The notes: a model not told the origin generated them from the letters alone. A DNA stretch of 64,000 bases from an uncultured Syntrophus sp. (GCA_964571695.1 CAZNDG010000008.1:15492-79491); one strand, 5' to 3'; numbered from the stretch's first letter, positions 16,044 through 21,345 are shown. A program made the numbers and translations.

Positions 16044-16988
16044 CTATGTCAAAAGGGCGGCGACGGTTTTCCGGAGGGATTCGCCGTCACCGGCGTAGAG
16101 GAGGCGGGGCCGCCGGTCGATATTCTTGACCAGTCCGGAAAGGACCCGCCGGGGGCCGATTTCCACGAAGGTCGTTACGCCCTTGGAGATCAGCATCTCC
16201 ACTGTTTCCTGCCAGCGCACCGGCGAGATCATCTGCATCTTCAGCAACTCCCGGGACGCCGCCGGAGAATGTTCCCGCCGGGGATCGTAATTGGGGATGA
16301 CCGGCAGGCGGGGAGGATGAAAGGCGATCTGTTCCAAATCGGTGCGGAAAAGTTCGGCCGCCGCGGCGAGGAGCCGGGAATGACAGGGAACGCTGATGGG
16401 GAGGGGGACGAACTTCTTGATCCCCTTTTGGGCGGCCGCCTCCCCCACCCGGGCAACGGCCCGGACATCTCCCGAGATGACGATCTGGTTCGGGGCGTTG
16501 AGGTTGGCCAGATCCAGGGTTTCACCGGTCAGGACGCATTCGCGGCAGACCGCCGCCGTTTCTCCGCCGGTGAGACCCAGGATGGCGGCCATGGCCCCGC
16601 GTCCGGGAGGAAGGGCCTCCTGGTGTCGTTTCGCCCGGGCCTGGACAATGGTTACCGCATCTTTTAGAGTCAGCGCCCCCGCGGCATAGAGCGCGCTGTA
16701 CTCGCCCAGACTGTGTCCGGCCGCCGCGATCGGATCGATCTCTCCCGCCTGTTCCCGGAAGAGGGTATAGACCCCTATTTCGAAGGCCAGAACCGCCAGT
16801 TGGGTGTTAACCGTCTGATCCAGATCTTCCTGAGGGCCCTCCAGGCAGAGCCGGGCGATGTCCACTCCCGTGATCTCCCGAACCCGGGACAGGACCTCCC
16901 GGTAGGCGGGGCAGTCCCGGTGGAAATCCGCACCCATGCCGACGAACTGGGATCCCTGTCCCGGAAAGATGAGTGCCCATTTTTCCAT
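16044..16988 (-). CDS. fabD: malonyl CoA-acyl carrier protein transacylase
   Basis: IFPGQGSQFVGMG, AGHSLGEYSAL (active-site Ser) and VPCHSRLL motifs. ATG 16988 preceded by GGAGGAGAG. Confidence 0.85.
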   Translation of the reverse strand: MEKWALIFPGQGSQFVGMGADFHRDCPAYREVLSRVREITGVDIARLCLEGPQEDLDQTVNTQLAVLAFEIGVYTLFREQAGEIDPIAAAGHSLGEYSALYAAGALTLKDAVTIVQARAKRHQEALPPGRGAMAAILGLTGGETAAVCRECVLTGETLDLANLNAPNQIVISGDVRAVARVGEAAAQKGIKKFVPLPISVPCHSRLLAAAAELFRTDLEQIAFHPPRLPVIPNYDPRREHSPAASRELLKMQMISPVRWQETVEMLISKGVTTFVEIGPRRVLSGLVKNIDRRPRLLYAGDGESLRKTVAALLT

Positions 16989-17034
16989 TACGGATCTCTC
17001 CTCCGGTTCTCGATACCGGATCTCCTCACGGCGT

Positions 17035-18681
17035 TCATTCGTGGACATAGATACCCGGCGCCCGATCCCGGGGCGGGTATTTCCGGTTTCCCAGAGGCGG
17101 GGGCGGCCGCCGGGAGTTGTCGTGCTGGCTCAGCCAGGCGGTCCAGTCCGGCCACCAGGAGCCGCGCCTTTCCTCCTGCCGGCGGAGCCAGGCCTCGGGT
17201 TCCTCCGGGAGCTCCGCCTCCCCGCTCCAGTATTTACGCCGCGATCCCTCGGAGTGGGGGTTGATGATCCCGGTGATGTGCCCCTCGCTGGAGAGGACAA
17301 AGCGGCGTCGGCCCGCAACGATCCCGCAGGTGCGAAAGGCGCCGCGCCAGGGGCAGATATGGTCAAGTTGGGTTCCCACGGCGTAGAGGGGCTGTACGAC
17401 CCTGCCCATATCGATGGGACGTTCCCCCAGGGTCAAGGCGTCGCTTTTGGCGAGATTGTTGTGGAGGTAGAACTCCCGGAGATAGTAGGAGCACATGGCC
17501 TCGGGCAGGCGGGTGCTGTCGCTGTTCCAGAAGAGCATGTCGGACTTCGGGGAGGCGGCCCCGTAAAGATAGTTCTGAATATAGTTTCTCCAGATCAGGT
17601 TGTCGGCGCCGAGGATCCGGAAGATCCAGCTCAGGTACCGGGCATCGAGGAATCCGTCCATTTTCATGAGGGCCTCGGTGGCGGCGAGGGAGCGGTCGCT
17701 GATGAAAACCCCCAGATCCCCCGGTTCACTGAAATCCACCAGGGTCGAAAACAGCGTCCAGTCCGCCACCGGCCCGGGGCTTTTCCTCCGTTGGCCCCGG
17801 TTGAGCCAGGCCATGAGGGCCGCCAGGGCCGTGCCGCCGATGCAGTACCCAGCCGCGTGGACCTGGGGACTCCGGCAGATGTGCCGCGCCGCCGCCACCG
17901 CCGCCAGCGCCCCGGCAAACATGTAATCGGAGAAGGCAACCTCCCGCATGGCCTCCGTCGGATTCTTCCAACTGATAGTGAAGACGGTAAACCCCTGATC
18001 CCGTAGATAACGGACCAGGCTGGTCTGGGGGGTCAGATCGAAGATGTAGTACTTGTTGATCCAGGGAGGGATCAGAACCACCGGGAGGGTATAGGTCGTT
18101 TCCGTGGCGGCTTCGTACTGGATGAGTTCCATGATCTCGTTGCGAAAAACCACGGCGCCGGGGGTAATGGCGATATTTTCCCCCACCCGAAAGGCCGTCT
18201 CGTCGGTGATACGGGAGAGATAATCCCCCCTGCTCAGGTCTTCCCAGGCCCGGCCCAGCCCCTGCATGAGACTGGCGCCCCCGGTTTCGAGGAACTTTTT
18301 CATGGCCGCGGGATTGGTCCAGAAGAAATTCGGCGGCGCCATGGCGCTCAAGATCTGTTGGATCCAGAAACGGGCCCGTTGCCGGTCCCGGTCGTTGAGG
18401 TCCCGGGTCAACTCCACCAACTCCCGGAGCCAGATGTCCAGAATGGCATGAAAGCGCCGGTTTAATTTTGCGTTCTTCCGGACGTATTCGAGGAAGACCT
18501 CGCCGGCGTTTTCCTTGTCCTCCGCCGGCAGCTCCGAGGACAGGAGGTGGGGAAACTCTTCCCGGGTCGCCTCCTCCAGACGCCGGAAGAGATCGATGAC
18601 CCGCTCATTCGTCTCTTCCGAGCGGTCCAGCCAGGAACGCTGGACATTCCAGAGGGAAGTCAAAATATCCAGGGGGTCCAT
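17035..18681 (-). CDS. phaC: class I-type poly(R)-hydroxyalkanoate synthase homolog (alpha/beta hydrolase)
   Basis: PPWINKYYIFDL motif and lipase-box GYCIGGT with a Cys nucleophile. PhaC-type N-terminal region. 548 aa. Confidence 0.7.
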   Translation of the reverse strand: MDPLDILTSLWNVQRSWLDRSEETNERVIDLFRRLEEATREEFPHLLSSELPAEDKENAGEVFLEYVRKNAKLNRRFHAILDIWLRELVELTRDLNDRDRQRARFWIQQILSAMAPPNFFWTNPAAMKKFLETGGASLMQGLGRAWEDLSRGDYLSRITDETAFRVGENIAITPGAVVFRNEIMELIQYEAATETTYTLPVVLIPPWINKYYIFDLTPQTSLVRYLRDQGFTVFTISWKNPTEAMREVAFSDYMFAGALAAVAAARHICRSPQVHAAGYCIGGTALAALMAWLNRGQRRKSPGPVADWTLFSTLVDFSEPGDLGVFISDRSLAATEALMKMDGFLDARYLSWIFRILGADNLIWRNYIQNYLYGAASPKSDMLFWNSDSTRLPEAMCSYYLREFYLHNNLAKSDALTLGERPIDMGRVVQPLYAVGTQLDHICPWRGAFRTCGIVAGRRRFVLSSEGHITGIINPHSEGSRRKYWSGEAELPEEPEAWLRRQEERRGSWWPDWTAWLSQHDNSRRPPPPLGNRKYPPRDRAPGIYVHE

Positions 18682-18683
18682 CT

Positions 18684-18950
18684 TCAGGCCCTCTTCTCTC
18701 CCCCGGCGTCAAGCTTTTCAGGGTTTTCGATACGGGCGGCAATCTCCCCGAGGGTGGCGTCCTCGCCGAAGAGGTCAAGGGGGATGGTGACATTGAAGGT
18801 TTCCGCGATAAAATTCTGCAGGTTCACCGCCGCCATGGAATCGAAATCGGGGATGTCCCCCAGACGGGTTTCCGCATCGATGACCATTCCTTCCGTTTCC
18901 GGGAAAAGGTCTTCTATGCCCGTCCTGAGTTTCTTTAACGTATCGGTCAT
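18684..18950 (-). CDS. acyl/peptidyl carrier protein (phosphopantetheine-binding)
   Basis: 88 aa, acidic, with DFDSMAAVNL (a DSx attachment-site Ser at the start of helix II). Only 2 nt separate it from phaC. Confidence 0.65.
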   Translation of the reverse strand: MTDTLKKLRTGIEDLFPETEGMVIDAETRLGDIPDFDSMAAVNLQNFIAETFNVTIPLDLFGEDATLGEIAARIENPEKLDAGGEKRA

Positions 18951-18981
18951 GCCTTTACCTCCTTTTGGATATGTTCCTTAC

Positions 18982-19962
18982 TCAGATCCGGATCAGATTG
19001 GCTCCCCAGGACAAGCCGCCGCCGAAGGCCGCGGTGATCACCAGATCCCCCGGGCCGACAACGCCCTCCGTCCGGGCCTCGTCCAGGGCGATGAGGACCG
19101 AGGCGCTGGCGGTGTTCCCGTAGCGGTCCAGATTTACATAGAATCTTTCCCGTGGGACGTCAAGGATGTCGGCGATGCCCCAGAGGATGTGAATGTTCGC
19201 CTGATGGCACAGGAAGCATTTGATCTCTCTCAGCGCGACGCCGGCCGCCGCCGCGGCCTGGCGGATAACCAGGGGGCCTTTGTCGAGGGTGAAGTTGAAC
19301 ACCTCCTCCCCCTTCATGCGGAAATACGCCGCCCGGGGGTTGGTGATCTTTCCGTAGGGCATCATGGCCCCGCCGCCGGGGACGCAGATCGTTTCACTGC
19401 GGCTGCCGTCGGTGCCCAAAACGGAGTTGAGCACCCCGCGGGCGGCTTCTTCCCGGCCCTGCAGCAGCACCGCCCCCGCCCCGTCTCCGAAATAGGGGTA
19501 GGTGGAGAAATCCTTACGGTTGAGGATCCGGGAATAGGTCTCCGCGGCCACAAAGAGGATGTTTTCGTACTGCCCCGTCCGAATCAGGGCGTCGGCGAGG
19601 TGGAGGCCATAGGTGCTGCCCGCGCATACGGAATTGATATCGAAGGCGAAGGAGCTCCGGGCTCCGAGGAGGTGCTGGAGGCGAGTGGCCGTGGCCGGCT
19701 GGATGCGGTCGGGGGAGGAGGTGGAAAGTATGATCCCCTTGACGTCGGCGGCCGGGAAGGAGATCTTCTCCAGACAGGACCGGGCCGCCTCGAGGGCGAG
19801 GTCGGAGGTGGTCTGATGTTCTCCGGCGTGCCGCCGCGCCTGGACCCCGGTTTTGCTGCCGATCAGGGCCTGGGCCTCCCGGGAAAACTGGGTGAGCCCC
19901 TCGTTGGGAATGACGGTCTCCGGCAGGTAGGAACCGGTGGAGGCAATGACGCCTCTTTTCAT
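18982..19962 (-). CDS. 3-oxoacyl-ACP synthase III (FabH-like KAS III)
   Basis: Cys-His-Asn triad contexts present: DINSVCAGSTYGL, FLCHQANIHIL, RYGNTASASV. Trimmed to the MKRGVIAS start, which has a GGGGGAAAG SD. Confidence 0.8.
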   Translation of the reverse strand: MKRGVIASTGSYLPETVIPNEGLTQFSREAQALIGSKTGVQARRHAGEHQTTSDLALEAARSCLEKISFPAADVKGIILSTSSPDRIQPATATRLQHLLGARSSFAFDINSVCAGSTYGLHLADALIRTGQYENILFVAAETYSRILNRKDFSTYPYFGDGAGAVLLQGREEAARGVLNSVLGTDGSRSETICVPGGGAMMPYGKITNPRAAYFRMKGEEVFNFTLDKGPLVIRQAAAAAGVALREIKCFLCHQANIHILWGIADILDVPRERFYVNLDRYGNTASASVLIALDEARTEGVVGPGDLVITAAFGGGLSWGANLIRI

Positions 19963-20034
19963 ATCGCTTTCCCCCGCTTTTTGATTGAGGAAGATCTCTA
20001 TCACAGAGCGGAAAATCCTGTCAAAAAAAACCCT

Positions 20035-21345
20035 TCAGGATATCACCGGCGGGCCGCTGACCAGCACCTTGTCGATCCGGTGGCCGTCCATGTCCACGAT
20101 CTCGAACCGCCAGTTGCCCCAGTGAAAGTGATCGCCCGTGGTGGGGATTCGTTCCAGATAGGACATGATGAATCCGGCCAGGGTGTGAAAATCGCCCCTT
20201 ACCTCCGCCGGCAGTTTCTGGATCTTGAAATGGGCCTTGAAGTCGTCTATGGAGAGGGCGCCGTCAACGAGCCAGGAGCCGTCCTCGCGGCGGACGATCT
20301 CCCGGTCCCCCCCCTCGCTCAGGGAGGGTATGTCGCCCACGATCGTCTCGATGACGTCGCTGATGGTCACCAGTCCCTGGATGATGCCGTATTCATCCAC
20401 CACCATGGCCATATGGATGGGGGATGTCTTGAACTGTTCCAGGACCTGCCAGGCGGAGATCGTTTCAGGAAAATAGAGGGGTTTCCGCAGCAGGGGCAGG
20501 AGGTCGGGATCTCCCTTTTCCGGGGTGAGCTCCTGCTTCAGGAGGTCCTTGAGATGGAGAAATCCGATGACCTGATCGAGACTGCCCCGGCCGACGGGGA
20601 AACAGGTGTGTTCACCGGTACGGATGATATCCAGATTTTGGGCGAAGGGCTTCGCGGCATCCAGCCAGAGGACGTCCGGACGGGGAGTCATGAGATCACG
20701 GACGCCCAGATCGTCGATGTGGAAGGCCCGGTGACAGATCTCATGCTCCATGGCATGAAAGATGCCGGCTTCCGCTCCCTCTTCGAGGAGCACCTTTACC
20801 TCTTCCTCCGATACGGAACTTTCCGACTTTTTTATGTTCATGACCTTCAGGAGGGCCTCCGTAGAGATATCGAGAATCCAGACCAGGGGGTAGGCGGCAA
20901 GGGAAAGGTAATAGACCGGGCGTGCGGCCAGGGTGGCGATCCGTTCCGCCTTGAACAGGGCCAGCCGTTTGGGGACCAGCTCCCCCAGGACCAGAGAGAG
21001 ATAGGTGATTGCCAGTACCACCAGGGTGAGGCTGATGGTGTCGCTGTACGGGCGGAGCGCCGGATACTGCTGCAGATAGGCGCTCACGGATTTCGCCACG
21101 GTTGCGCCGCCGTAGGCCCCGGACAGGATGCCGACGAGGGTGATGCCGATCTGGATGGTGGAGAGAAAACTCCCCGGTTCTTCGGCGAGGTTCAGGGCCT
21201 TCTCCGCCCCGGCATCGCCGTTTTCCGCTTCGACCCGGAGCTTGGCCTTGCGGGAAGATACCAGGGCGATCTCCGCCATGGAGAAAGCCCCGTTGATCAG
21301 GACCAGAATCAGCAGAATAATAAGTTCGGCAGGCAGAGAAGACAT
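20035..21345 (-). CDS. CNNM/HlyC-CorC family transporter (DUF21, CBS pair, CorC_HlyC domains)
   Basis: N-terminal DUF21 (LINGAFSMAEIALVSSRK), CBS pair, C-terminal transporter-associated domain (GHRIDKVLV). Confidence 0.8.
   Translation of the reverse strand: MSSLPAELIILLILVLINGAFSMAEIALVSSRKAKLRVEAENGDAGAEKALNLAEEPGSFLSTIQIGITLVGILSGAYGGATVAKSVSAYLQQYPALRPYSDTISLTLVVLAITYLSLVLGELVPKRLALFKAERIATLAARPVYYLSLAAYPLVWILDISTEALLKVMNIKKSESSVSEEEVKVLLEEGAEAGIFHAMEHEICHRAFHIDDLGVRDLMTPRPDVLWLDAAKPFAQNLDIIRTGEHTCFPVGRGSLDQVIGFLHLKDLLKQELTPEKGDPDLLPLLRKPLYFPETISAWQVLEQFKTSPIHMAMVVDEYGIIQGLVTISDVIETIVGDIPSLSEGGDREIVRREDGSWLVDGALSIDDFKAHFKIQKLPAEVRGDFHTLAGFIMSYLERIPTTGDHFHWGNWRFEIVDMDGHRIDKVLVSGPPVIS

Follow-up and report, generated by a model that had tools for sequence, protein, structure and literature searches.

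A FabH-like KAS III, a dedicated acyl carrier protein (ACP) and a class-I-like PHA synthase homologue (PhaC) are encoded together in a conserved cassette, which probably supplies 3-hydroxyacyl thioesters to a polyester synthase, via either ACP or CoA. More tentatively, and as judged from sequence, the cassette may constitute a self-contained carrier-protein-based PHA route, in which PhaC would take the ACP thioester directly. Gene content, conservation, intact catalytic residues and the non-canonical docking surfaces of FabH and ACP are all observed. No published description of a FabH-ACP-PhaC cassette was found in the literature searched, in line with the preliminary description of this DNA, which had not recognised the arrangement as a characterised pathway.

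The FabH-ACP-PhaC cassette and its conservation

In the window, that is, the whole analysed stretch of 64,000 nucleotides from an uncultured syntrophic anaerobe of the order Syntrophales (Syntrophus sp.), the block is made of four genes:

18982..19962, minus strand: FabH-like KAS III, 326 aa from the M at 19962
18684..18950, minus strand: acyl carrier protein (ACP), 88 aa, with DFDSM as the predicted phosphopantetheine attachment site
17035..18681, minus strand: PhaC-like, class-I-like PHA synthase homologue, 548 aa, with PhaC_N
16044..16988, minus strand: FabD, malonyl-CoA:ACP transacylase, 314 aa from the M at 16988, matching TIGR00128

The four ORFs were found as initially described, as were the motifs PPWINKYYIFDL and GYCIGGT (PhaC) and DFDSM (ACP), and the intergenic gaps are 31, 2 and 46 nt, given starts at 19962 (FabH) and 16988 (FabD). 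The FabH reading frame runs on upstream as far as a GTG at 20004, and both homology and the typical N-terminus MKRGVIASTGSYLP start at 19962. Upstream of the fabD start, the ORF stays open to an in-frame ATG at 17048, which corresponds to a 14-nt overlap with phaC. The block is flanked by unrelated genes, for a CNNM/CorC transporter on its upstream side and for an S41 Ctp protease on its downstream side.

A search for the block in other genomes, one of the checks proposed at the outset, showed that its core recurs: the order FabH-ACP-PhaC is present in 33 loci of Syntrophales, Desulfobacterales and Syntrophobacteraceae, with PhaC identities ranging from 96% down to 42%, and in all cases phaC comes immediately after the ACP gene, at distances of -4 to 63 nt. 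A chance adjacency of the core genes is ruled out by the order and the tiny gaps kept in these 33 loci. All the cassette members known come from uncultured organisms. In the phylogeny, also proposed as a check, the 33 cassette PhaCs form a single clade (SH-aLRT 100), and the clustering of the cassette label on the PhaC tree was reached in none of 500 shuffles. Among 151 sampled genomes of the order, this PhaC type occurs in 31, all of which also carry the FabH type; many genomes of the order have no class-I-like PhaC match other than the cassette one. These data support a FabH-ACP-PhaC core that has been inherited as a unit, with a single origin on the PhaC tree and a functional linkage.

Cassettes of other lineages contain, in addition, two unrelated types of FabG-like ketoreductase, which were recruited separately: the first in loci L012, L018 and L022 (NF006072, 309.8 against a cut-off of 298), and the second in loci L099, L101 and L021. 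The Syntrophobacteraceae cassettes include, behind phaC, a small phasin-like gene with homology to a tandem pair of genes adjacent to PhaR in the class III PHA locus of the source genome; relatives of this family carry the JGI label 'polyhydroxyalkanoate synthesis regulator phasin'. Together with FabD, these accessory genes are those that the proposed pathway needs, and the supply of ketoreductase and phasin in the cassettes of other lineages favours a carrier-bound route feeding a polyester synthase, which was the first of the two alternatives originally offered. The earlier remark that ketoreductase, phasin and PhaR are missing nearby stands for the window, and no FabG-like SDR was found on the entire 88-kb contig. 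It does not hold for the genome, where another contig carries a complete class III PHA locus (PhaE, PhaC, PhaJ, PhaR and two phasin-like genes). The source genome also encodes a class I PhaC as an orphan.

The KAS III, its carrier protein and FabD

The cassette FabH shows the domains PF08545 and PF08541, passes NF006829 (307.9 against a cut-off of 249), scores under the cut-off of TIGR00747 (269.3 against 292.1) and has a FabH, 4dfe, as its nearest solved structure (E 8.7e-60). Its Cys113/His253/Asn283, equivalent to E. coli C112/H244/N274, are invariant in 30 orthologues, which bears out the intact triad noticed earlier, and the position of E. coli F87 is Gln in all 30. The basic AcpP-docking patch of E. 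coli FabH, which we take from docking-site mutagenesis to be R249 with K214, K256 and K257, is lacking in the cassette enzymes: the R249 position is Asn in 27 of the 30 and His in the other 3, and the three Lys positions are variable and mostly non-basic.

As for the ACP, it is recognised by PP-binding (25.5 against a cut-off of 20.8) and gave zero matches to NCBIfam, including the AcpP model TIGR00517. Its helix II (DSMAAVNLQNFIAETF, versus DSLDTVELVMALEEEF in E. coli AcpP) is devoid of the acidic residues D38, E41, E47 and E49 of the E. coli protein, which places it outside the housekeeping AcpPs as defined by TIGR00517 plus an acidic helix II. The Ser of DS(M/I/L) is kept in all the ACP orthologues among those listed (alignment of 34), and the nearest solved structure is that of an orphan carrier protein (2lki, E 0.007). 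A true acpP is additionally present in 29 of 31 related genomes. With the docking residues gone on both sides, basic in FabH and acidic in helix II of the ACP, the two proteins look, at the sequence level, like a private pair.

In other Syntrophales families, this FabH-ACP pair is found at loci where PhaC is missing and glycolipid-type genes come next. These encode a GT2, an LpxL-type acyltransferase, a B12 radical SAM enzyme and an MMPL-type protein, the last being an MMPL-methyltransferase fusion, and the FabHs of these pairs nest within the cassette FabH radiation. Such sharing with loci lacking PhaC suggests a portable starter module. Acyltransferases of the LpxL class use acyl-ACPs as donors, and the pair looks like a module that passes ACP-bound acyl groups to whichever transferase comes next. 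Syntrophales without the pair contain no FabH closer than about 30% identity, which also speaks for a private pair, and this absence of the cassette type indicates that it is not the housekeeping initiator of the order.

FabD passes TIGR00128 (294.2 against a cut-off of 260.9), is 42% identical to E. coli FabD with Q11, S92, R117 and H201 all kept, and belongs to the ordinary housekeeping type, which adjoins acpP in most Syntrophales. In the source genus, the acpP locus (rpmF-acpP-fabF) is devoid of fabH and fabD, which must therefore lie elsewhere, and the cassette FabD is apparently the sole canonical copy, probably serving fatty-acid synthesis as well. Moreover, fabD follows phaC in Syntrophales loci only, and is absent from the cassettes of Desulfobacterales and Syntrophobacteraceae. 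FabD is thus outside the conserved core, and the initial view of it as a private member of the module is not maintained.

The housekeeping type of FabD and the composition of the acpP locus would favour a reading in which the four genes have no joint function and are neighbours by history, with FabH, ACP and FabD engaged in ordinary fatty-acid synthesis, and PhaC acting as a normal PHB synthase whose substrate comes from thiolase and reductase genes at other loci. Such a reading is highly improbable and largely refuted by synteny, given a FabH-ACP-PhaC order kept across three orders with near-zero spacing. It would also have to accommodate a FabH type that is missing from Syntrophales without the pair and has lost the AcpP-docking residues, and an ACP that falls outside the AcpP model, relatives carrying a true acpP too.

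The PhaC homologue and the proposed pathway

The architecture of a single polypeptide with PhaC_N and an alpha/beta-hydrolase domain (about 550-600 aa) was found in the 548-aa PhaC: PhaC_N (PF07167) covers residues 80-226 (E 3.8e-52), and Abhydrolase_1 aligns with residues 219-470 at E 1.5e-4, under its cut-off (22 against 25.8). The original assignment to class I stands as regards PhaC_N, the box and the triad, but not as regards the class I model TIGR01838, with a score of 532.4 bits under the curated cut-off of 622.65; the cut-offs of classes II and III are likewise not reached. The protein is about 40% identical to proven synthases across the whole catalytic domain, with 375 bits against the PHA synthase 9knj and 319 bits against C. 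necator PhaC (5hz2). Cys280 (GYCIGG), Asp440, His468 and Trp385 align with both structures and are invariant in 84 PhaCs (34 from cassettes and 50 others). Only about 8 clade-specific positions separate the cassette PhaC from ordinary class I synthases, and the signature of the clade is Ser380, which in all members replaces a CAP-helix Phe conserved in classes I and II (F420 of C. necator).

Both this Ser and the score under TIGR01838 would fit a PhaC homologue that is not a polymerase but a Cys-dependent ester-forming acyltransferase, moving ACP-bound 3-keto- or 3-hydroxyacyl groups onto another acceptor, for instance a sugar, a lipid or a further hydroxy acid, so that an ester lipid or a short oligoester would be formed in place of storage granules. 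RhlA, an alpha/beta-hydrolase joining two 3-hydroxyacyl-ACPs, offers a precedent, and further arguments come from the reuse of the FabH-ACP pair ahead of glycolipid-type genes, with FabHs nested in the cassette radiation, and from the two other PHA synthases already present in the source genome. A non-polymerase is nevertheless quite unlikely, since PhaC differs from class I at so few clade-specific positions. The identity to proven synthases, with PhaC_N, the catalytic triad and the dimer Trp all kept, stands against it, as do the phasin-like gene of the Syntrophobacteraceae cassette, the status of PhaC as the only class-I-like match in many genomes of the order, and the lack of conserved acceptor-making genes beside the cassette. 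In addition, the F420S change in C. necator PhaC raised polymerase activity and did not abolish it (PMC5509742).

The preferred carrier-bound route to a polyester would start with FabD, which would transfer malonate from malonyl-CoA onto the dedicated ACP. The dedicated KAS III would then condense malonyl-ACP with a primer, either acetyl-CoA or some other short acyl-CoA, producing 3-ketoacyl-ACP and CO2, and a FabG-like ketoreductase would follow to give (R)-3-hydroxyacyl-ACP; in the source genome, this enzyme would act in trans, a candidate being the 75% identical ketoreductase orthologue at C1:329662-330456. Neither an elongating KS nor a dehydratase or enoyl reductase was seen in annotated cassettes, so the chain should stop at the 3-hydroxy stage after one condensation. 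Finally, PhaC, translated right behind ACP, would accept the 3-hydroxyacyl group on Cys280, straight from the ACP thioester, and polymerise it. We infer every one of these reactions as well as the choice of primer, and the most inferential step of all is the direct hand-off between ACP and PhaC.

Such a hand-off would be favoured by an ACP gene that is always immediately ahead of phaC, by the lack of any thioesterase, CoA ligase or PhaG-like gene in the cassettes annotated and, by analogy, by the reuse of the pair ahead of an LpxL-type acyltransferase. A weak argument may be drawn from charge, as cassette PhaCs have a mean net charge of -1.9 versus -8.4 in their relatives, in a comparison that ignores phylogeny, and cassette ACPs average -10. 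Against the hand-off, the residues of the CoA adenine pocket are retained: M225 and P229, the adenine-pocket residues in the Chromobacterium PhaC-CoA structure (PMC7214940), correspond to F and P in WINKYYIFDLTP of the cassette PhaC, and work cited in PMC7214940 showed the 3'-phospho-ADP moiety of CoA to be important in its binding by known PhaCs. Likewise, the clade-specific positions are few, and the sequence gives no sign of a switch from CoA substrates. The pathway as a whole also has to face a window cassette without its own ketoreductase, a FabD that is housekeeping and not private, and a malonyl route that costs ATP, which would be odd for an energy-limited syntroph already equipped with class III and class I synthases.

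The retained pocket, together with the class I catalytic and dimer residues and the few clade-specific changes, would also agree with the same supply route ending on CoA, the acyl group being moved from ACP either by FabH or FabD, through a transacylase side activity, or by an enzyme encoded elsewhere, and PhaC being an ordinary CoA-dependent class I synthase. It would be the natural counterpart of engineered E. coli in which over-expressed fabH or fabD feeds PhaC: over-expression of either gene with phaC yields PHB (Taguchi et al. 1999, as cited in PMC11539682), and fabH mutants combined with fabG and phaC yield copolymers (PMC3896788). FabD is indeed present in Syntrophales cassettes, but it is missing from those of Desulfobacterales and Syntrophobacteraceae, and it keeps Arg117, the binder of the malonyl carboxylate. 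Moreover, an ending on CoA would make the dedicated non-canonical ACP superfluous, as a malonyl-CoA-using KAS III of the NphT7 type would suffice, and would leave the constant abutment of ACP and phaC unexplained; it is considered somewhat unlikely.

Under the direct hand-off, PhaC might be, although this is proposed with reserve, the first carrier-protein-dependent polyester synthase, polymerising (R)-3-hydroxyacyl groups straight from a dedicated ACP. If true, FabH, ACP and PhaC would form a 'type II' polyester synthase, comparable to type II FAS and PKS, and the synthesis of storage polymer would be shielded from the main catabolic intermediates of these syntrophs, namely their pools of (S)-3-hydroxyacyl-CoA and acetoacetyl-CoA.

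Comparison with known systems

The cassette PhaC shares with class I PHA synthases (C. necator, Aeromonas caviae and Chromobacterium sp. USM2; 5hz2, 5t6o, 5xav, 6k3c and 9knj) the single subunit, the PhaC_N plus alpha/beta-hydrolase organisation, the G-x-C-x-G-G box, the Cys-Asp-His triad and the dimer Trp, and its catalytic domain aligns to class I structures with E values from 3e-111 to 1e-91. Unlike them, it scores under the TIGR01838 cut-off, carries Ser for the CAP-helix Phe, was never found linked to phaA/phaB at the cassette loci and always lies behind a dedicated ACP and KAS III.

Engineered E. coli with FabH or FabD (and FabG) plus PhaC combines the same activities, namely KAS III, malonyl transacylase, 3-ketoacyl-ACP reductase and PHA synthase, in the accounts given by PMC11539682 and PMC3896788, and in this way connects a malonyl-dependent condensation with polyester. 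These pathways are artificial: they draw on the pool of housekeeping AcpP and get to CoA through side activities, whereas the cassette is an operon conserved in nature that brings a non-canonical ACP of its own. In Pseudomonas, PhaG and RhlA likewise obtain their monomers from (R)-3-hydroxyacyl-ACP, and not from thiolase or beta-oxidation. RhlA, an alpha/beta-hydrolase, forms the ester bond of its dimer directly from two 3-hydroxyacyl-ACPs. However, PhaG and RhlA, neither of them a PhaC homologue, draw on the general FAS II pool at C8-C12, whereas the cassette contains no PhaG- or RhlA-like gene but a private one-round KAS III/ACP pair. In the engineered NphT7-PhaB-PhaC pathway, an enzyme of the KAS III family takes the place of thiolase, and C4 formation for PHB is driven by the decarboxylation of a malonyl thioester. 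NphT7 works on malonyl-CoA and does not require an ACP, whereas the cassette FabH, which passes the FabH model NF006829, invariably comes with one. Set beside these systems, the cassette points to a putative, so far undescribed, malonyl-driven and carrier-protein-bound way to polyester building blocks.

The four-gene block and its FabH-ACP pair

The preliminary description placed a PHA-synthase homologue among four minus-strand genes of the window, and their coordinates, intergenic gaps (31, 2 and 46 nt) and motifs (PPWINKYYIFDL, GYCIGGT and DFDSM) were all confirmed.

Genes of the block in the window
18982-19962 (ORF open to 20004), minus strand: KAS III (FabH-type), passing NF006829 (307.9, cut-off 249)
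18684-18950, minus strand: carrier protein (ACP) of 88 aa, matching a generic PP-binding model only
17035-18681, minus strand: PhaC homologue of 548 aa (PhaC_N, E 3.8e-52)
16044-16988 (ORF open to 17048), minus strand: FabD, passing the TIGR00128 equivalog (294.2, cut-off 260.9)

The PhaC aligns with solved PHA synthases (9knj, 375 bits; 5hz2, 319 bits) and scores 532 with the class I model TIGR01838, under its cut-off of 622.65, while family scans of the ACP gave no match to any AcpP model. The block is flanked by unrelated genes, which encode a CNNM/CorC transporter, an S41 protease, a TPR protein, a LexA-like protein and a GGDEF sensor. The CNNM/CorC-type gene (20035-21345, minus strand) lies upstream of FabH, at a distance of about 70-180 nt in the window and in five of the closest Syntrophales loci (77-90% identical), and of about 440 nt in L002; it was not found beside FabH beyond the closest Syntrophales loci. 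A promoter and terminator scan placed promoter-like sites before the CNNM gene and before ctp, and showed no clear terminator on the minus strand beyond fabD. The block has a single strong promoter-like site upstream (21412-21384), and as this site precedes the CNNM gene, the cassette may be co-transcribed with that gene in this genus.

The FabH is 34% identical to that of E. coli and keeps the catalytic triad, and the pocket gate F87 is replaced by Gln in all 30 orthologues compared. R249 has become Asn or His, and K214, K256 and K257 are non-basic, these four being the AcpP-docking residues of the E. coli enzyme; helix II of the ACP, for its part, lacks the acidic D38, E41, E47 and E49 of AcpP. 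These complementary losses argue for a private FabH-ACP pair, insulated from housekeeping fatty-acid synthesis. Moreover, cassette-type FabH is absent from the Syntrophales without the pair, where the best matches are 25-31% identical, so that it is not the housekeeping initiator of the order.

The private module had been proposed to include FabD as well, and this part does not hold. FabD keeps Q11, S92, R117 and H201, and most genomes of the order have homologues of it (44-57% identity), as a rule next to acpP. In this genus the cassette copy and a distant one (38%) on contig C55 of the same assembly are the only ones, and the acpP locus lacks plsX, fabH, fabD and fabG, so the FabD of this genome is most likely shared with fatty-acid synthesis. 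Some families (f5 and f13) have a second FabD copy besides that of the cassette.

Conservation of the cassette and its accessory genes

A locus scan with one genome per species yielded 80 loci, of which the closest to the window come from Syntrophales MAGs. The order FabH-ACP-PhaC recurs in Syntrophales and Desulfobacterales, with PhaC identities from 96% down to 42%, and also on Syntrophobacteraceae contigs. In the 33 loci that keep this order, the ACP gene is always immediately 5′ of phaC (gaps of -4 to 63 nt), and FabH-to-ACP gaps are mostly 28-80 nt; in the DNA of L027, the TAA stop of the ACP is directly followed by the GTG start of phaC. As for the fourth gene, FabD follows phaC only in Syntrophales, so the conserved core is one of three genes. 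That the four genes are merely adjacent is very improbable.

In a maximum-likelihood tree of 81 PhaCs, built like the others by a quick method, all cassette PhaCs fall in one clade (33 rows, SH-aLRT 100), the one member whose neighbours are not visible being on a contig of 1.8 kb. The sister groups are PhaCs of Rhodoferax/Burkholderiales and Gammaproteobacteria, which stand alone amid unrelated genes. The cassette PhaC type was found in 31 of 151 genomes in an even sample of the order, all 31 also having the FabH type, and in only 6 of 401 genomes sampled across the phylum. In the protein database, at least 120 clusters show 48% identity or above; the matches listed all come from uncultured organisms and bear names as varied as class I synthase, alpha/beta hydrolase and hypothetical protein. 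The cassette members studied here are likewise all from MAGs. A MAG labelled Syntrophus aciditrophicus shows an unusual arrangement (L016:5524-7248, protein P0040, 574 aa), where the N-terminal half of FabH runs directly into PhaC residues 130-548 in one ORF; its C-terminal half is deleted, as are the ACP and the PhaC N-terminus, and the locus would be either a decayed cassette or an assembly artefact.

The ketoreductase noted as missing is indeed absent from the window's surroundings, with no FabG-like SDR on the whole 88-kb contig, but two SDR types occur in the cassettes of other lineages. The first lies between phaC and fabD on the complete Syntrophales chromosome L012, and also 3′ of phaC in L018 and in the Desulfobacteraceae locus L022; it passes the 3-ketoacyl-ACP reductase model NF006072 (309.8, cut-off 298). 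The second, unrelated type is found 3′ of phaC in L099, L101 and L021, and the window's own genome carries a 75%-identical orthologue elsewhere (contig C1:329662-330456). In the two Syntrophobacteraceae loci L099 and L101, a small gene of 88-90 aa stands between phaC and the SDR, with 33-38% identity to two tandem small genes beside PhaR on contig C9 of the window's assembly. Neither this gene nor its C9 relatives matched any family in Pfam or NCBIfam scans, and they are labelled phasin-like here from their genomic context and from the JGI name of many relatives, 'polyhydroxyalkanoate synthesis regulator phasin'. The annotated cassettes showed no elongating ketosynthase, dehydratase, enoyl reductase, thioesterase or CoA ligase, so that, by gene content, the sets would amount to a single round of condensation, reduction and esterification, with a granule-protein homologue added in one lineage.

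Ten Desulfobacteraceae-type cassettes (L022, L024-L026, L028-L030, L032, L033 and L036) have a conserved 168-aa gene just upstream of FabH, whose weak PilZ match (E 3e-4) is below cut-off; it may encode a regulator that makes the cassette responsive to c-di-GMP. Upstream of the cassette in a Desulfobacterales MAG of 29% GC (L034:74-3762) stand a DUF3141-TerB fusion (640 aa) and another alpha/beta-hydrolase of PhaC-like type (585 aa).

PHA and carrier-protein genes outside the cassette

The assembly (3.4 Mb, 116 contigs) contains three PhaC_N-bearing genes, namely the cassette PhaC, the class III PhaC on contig C9 and, on C6, an orphan of class I that is 38% identical to the cassette enzyme. 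Two further loci of this assembly, and two kinds of loci from other genomes that hold the FabH-ACP pair without PhaC, are relevant here.

Loci outside the cassette
C9:11240-18692: complete class III PHA locus, with PhaE, PhaC, a double-GAF protein, a MaoC/PhaJ hydratase, an alpha/beta-hydrolase, two small genes and PhaR
C55:3645-11683: second specialised lipid cluster, with the only other carrier protein of the genome
L104:6331-13983 and L108:6131-11277 (family f8): pair heading operons with GT2, an MMPL-methyltransferase fusion, an LpxL-type acyltransferase and a B12 radical SAM enzyme
L103/L106:3281-10329 (one genus of family f19): pair between an NTP-transferase/APH-kinase fusion and GT2-DUF4922

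The alpha/beta-hydrolase of the C9 locus has 521 aa and a GFCQGG box, and the two tandem phasin-like genes encode 90 and 99 aa. Together with the class I PhaC on C6, this locus indicates that ordinary PHA machinery is present outside the window; the reported lack of phasin and PhaR is thus correct for the window and not for the genome.

A true acpP was not found in this assembly, while it scored above cut-off in 29 of 31 relatives. In congeners it lies within yceD-rpmF-acpP-fabF-rpiB-glyA, and none of these genes, including the essential rpmF and glyA, was found here by comparison with the congener L095 (G003:C58:1-9000). The region is wholly missing although the assembly is rated 98.6% complete. 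The absence of acpP is an assembly gap, and the idea of the cassette ACP as the housekeeping carrier of an acpP-less genome was rejected, since the whole rpmF-acpP-fabF-rpiB-glyA region is missing.

The C55 cluster runs FabD-like, acyl-CoA dehydrogenase-like, KAS III-like, possibly FabA/Z-like, FabG-like, KAS I/II-like, an ACP of 82 aa and an acyltransferase-like ORF, where the FabD, KAS III, FabG, KAS and ACP labels come from searches and the remaining ones from reading the ORF sequence. At least six other Syntrophales genomes have a similar distant KAS III-like gene, with a weak ACP match some 3-4 kb away. As canonical FabH is largely absent from the order, C55-type clusters may be its real system for initiating fatty-acid synthesis.

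The idea that the cassette FabH type is exclusive to PhaC loci was rejected, since 15-16 genomes of the order sample have it without the PhaC type. In six such genomes inspected (f6, f8 and f19), an ACP of the same kind comes after FabH, and the pair has no PhaC next to it. The f8 operons include an MMPL-methyltransferase fusion of about 1026 aa and a radical SAM enzyme that is B12-binding, and the f8 and f19 clusters look like uncharacterised glycolipid or acyl-sugar pathways; L105 (f6) and L107 (another f19 genus) have the pair on its own. Because the FabHs of the PhaC-less loci nest within the cassette FabH radiation and the partners vary, the pair seems to be a portable starter module, which would pass an acyl group on its ACP to the next enzyme in line, be it one that forms esters or amides, and which is reused for apparent glycolipid-type clusters besides the PhaC cassette. 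Such portability supports a direct hand-off from ACP to PhaC. It also keeps alive the reading in which the cassette PhaC makes a non-polymer ester product such as an ester lipid, as the same pair heads glycolipid-type clusters without PhaC, though we hold this outcome to be quite unlikely.

The substrate of PhaC and known supply routes

Judged from sequence and genomic context, as are all functions given here, the cassette probably supplies 3-hydroxyacyl thioesters to a polyester synthase. Across 34 cassette PhaCs and 50 others, Cys280, Asp440, His468 and Trp385 do not vary, and a scan for clade-specific residues gave only 8 columns that set the cassette clade apart from 45 relatives. The clearest signature is Ser380 (Ser in 100% of the clade, Phe in 96% elsewhere), the equivalent of F420 in C. 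necator and of F387 in Chromobacterium, a CAP-helix position at the dimer/LID contact; an F420S mutant shows higher activity and a shorter lag (PMC5509742). None of the 8 columns could be attributed to carrier choice on sequence. In the Chromobacterium PhaC complex, the CoA adenine is held by M225 and P229 (PMC7214940), whose equivalents in the cassette PhaC are F and P. These two positions give no sign of lost CoA binding, and loss of the adenine pocket was thus rejected as support for ACP use.

A route in which the acyl group would pass through CoA before reaching PhaC is favoured by the intact CoA pocket, by how few changes are specific to the clade and by engineered systems that pair fabH or fabD with phaC; we nevertheless judge it unlikely. 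Our tentative preference is for PhaC polymerising directly from the ACP thioester, given the constant abutment of the ACP gene and phaC, a core with no transacylase, the way the pair behaves elsewhere and the weakly less acidic cassette PhaCs, in a charge comparison that ignores phylogeny. If the synthase draws directly on ACP thioesters, what counts as a PHA synthase substrate would have to be redefined, and metabolic engineers would gain a compact, thiolase-free module of three or four genes whose monomer is set by the primer pocket of the KAS III.

No published description of a natural FabH-ACP-PhaC operon was found in the literature searched, drawn mostly from outside subscription journals. 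The hosts are strict anaerobes living near the thermodynamic limit, where acetoacetyl-CoA and 3-hydroxybutyryl-CoA are catabolic intermediates, and supply through the cassette would be irreversible, driven by malonyl decarboxylation. To our knowledge, all characterised PHA synthases use CoA thioesters, and three natural routes to their monomers are known to us: thiolase with a reductase, PhaJ drawing on beta-oxidation, and PhaG drawing on the general fatty-acid synthesis pool. A natural operon in which a PHA synthase is coupled to a KAS III and an ACP dedicated to it would add a fourth.
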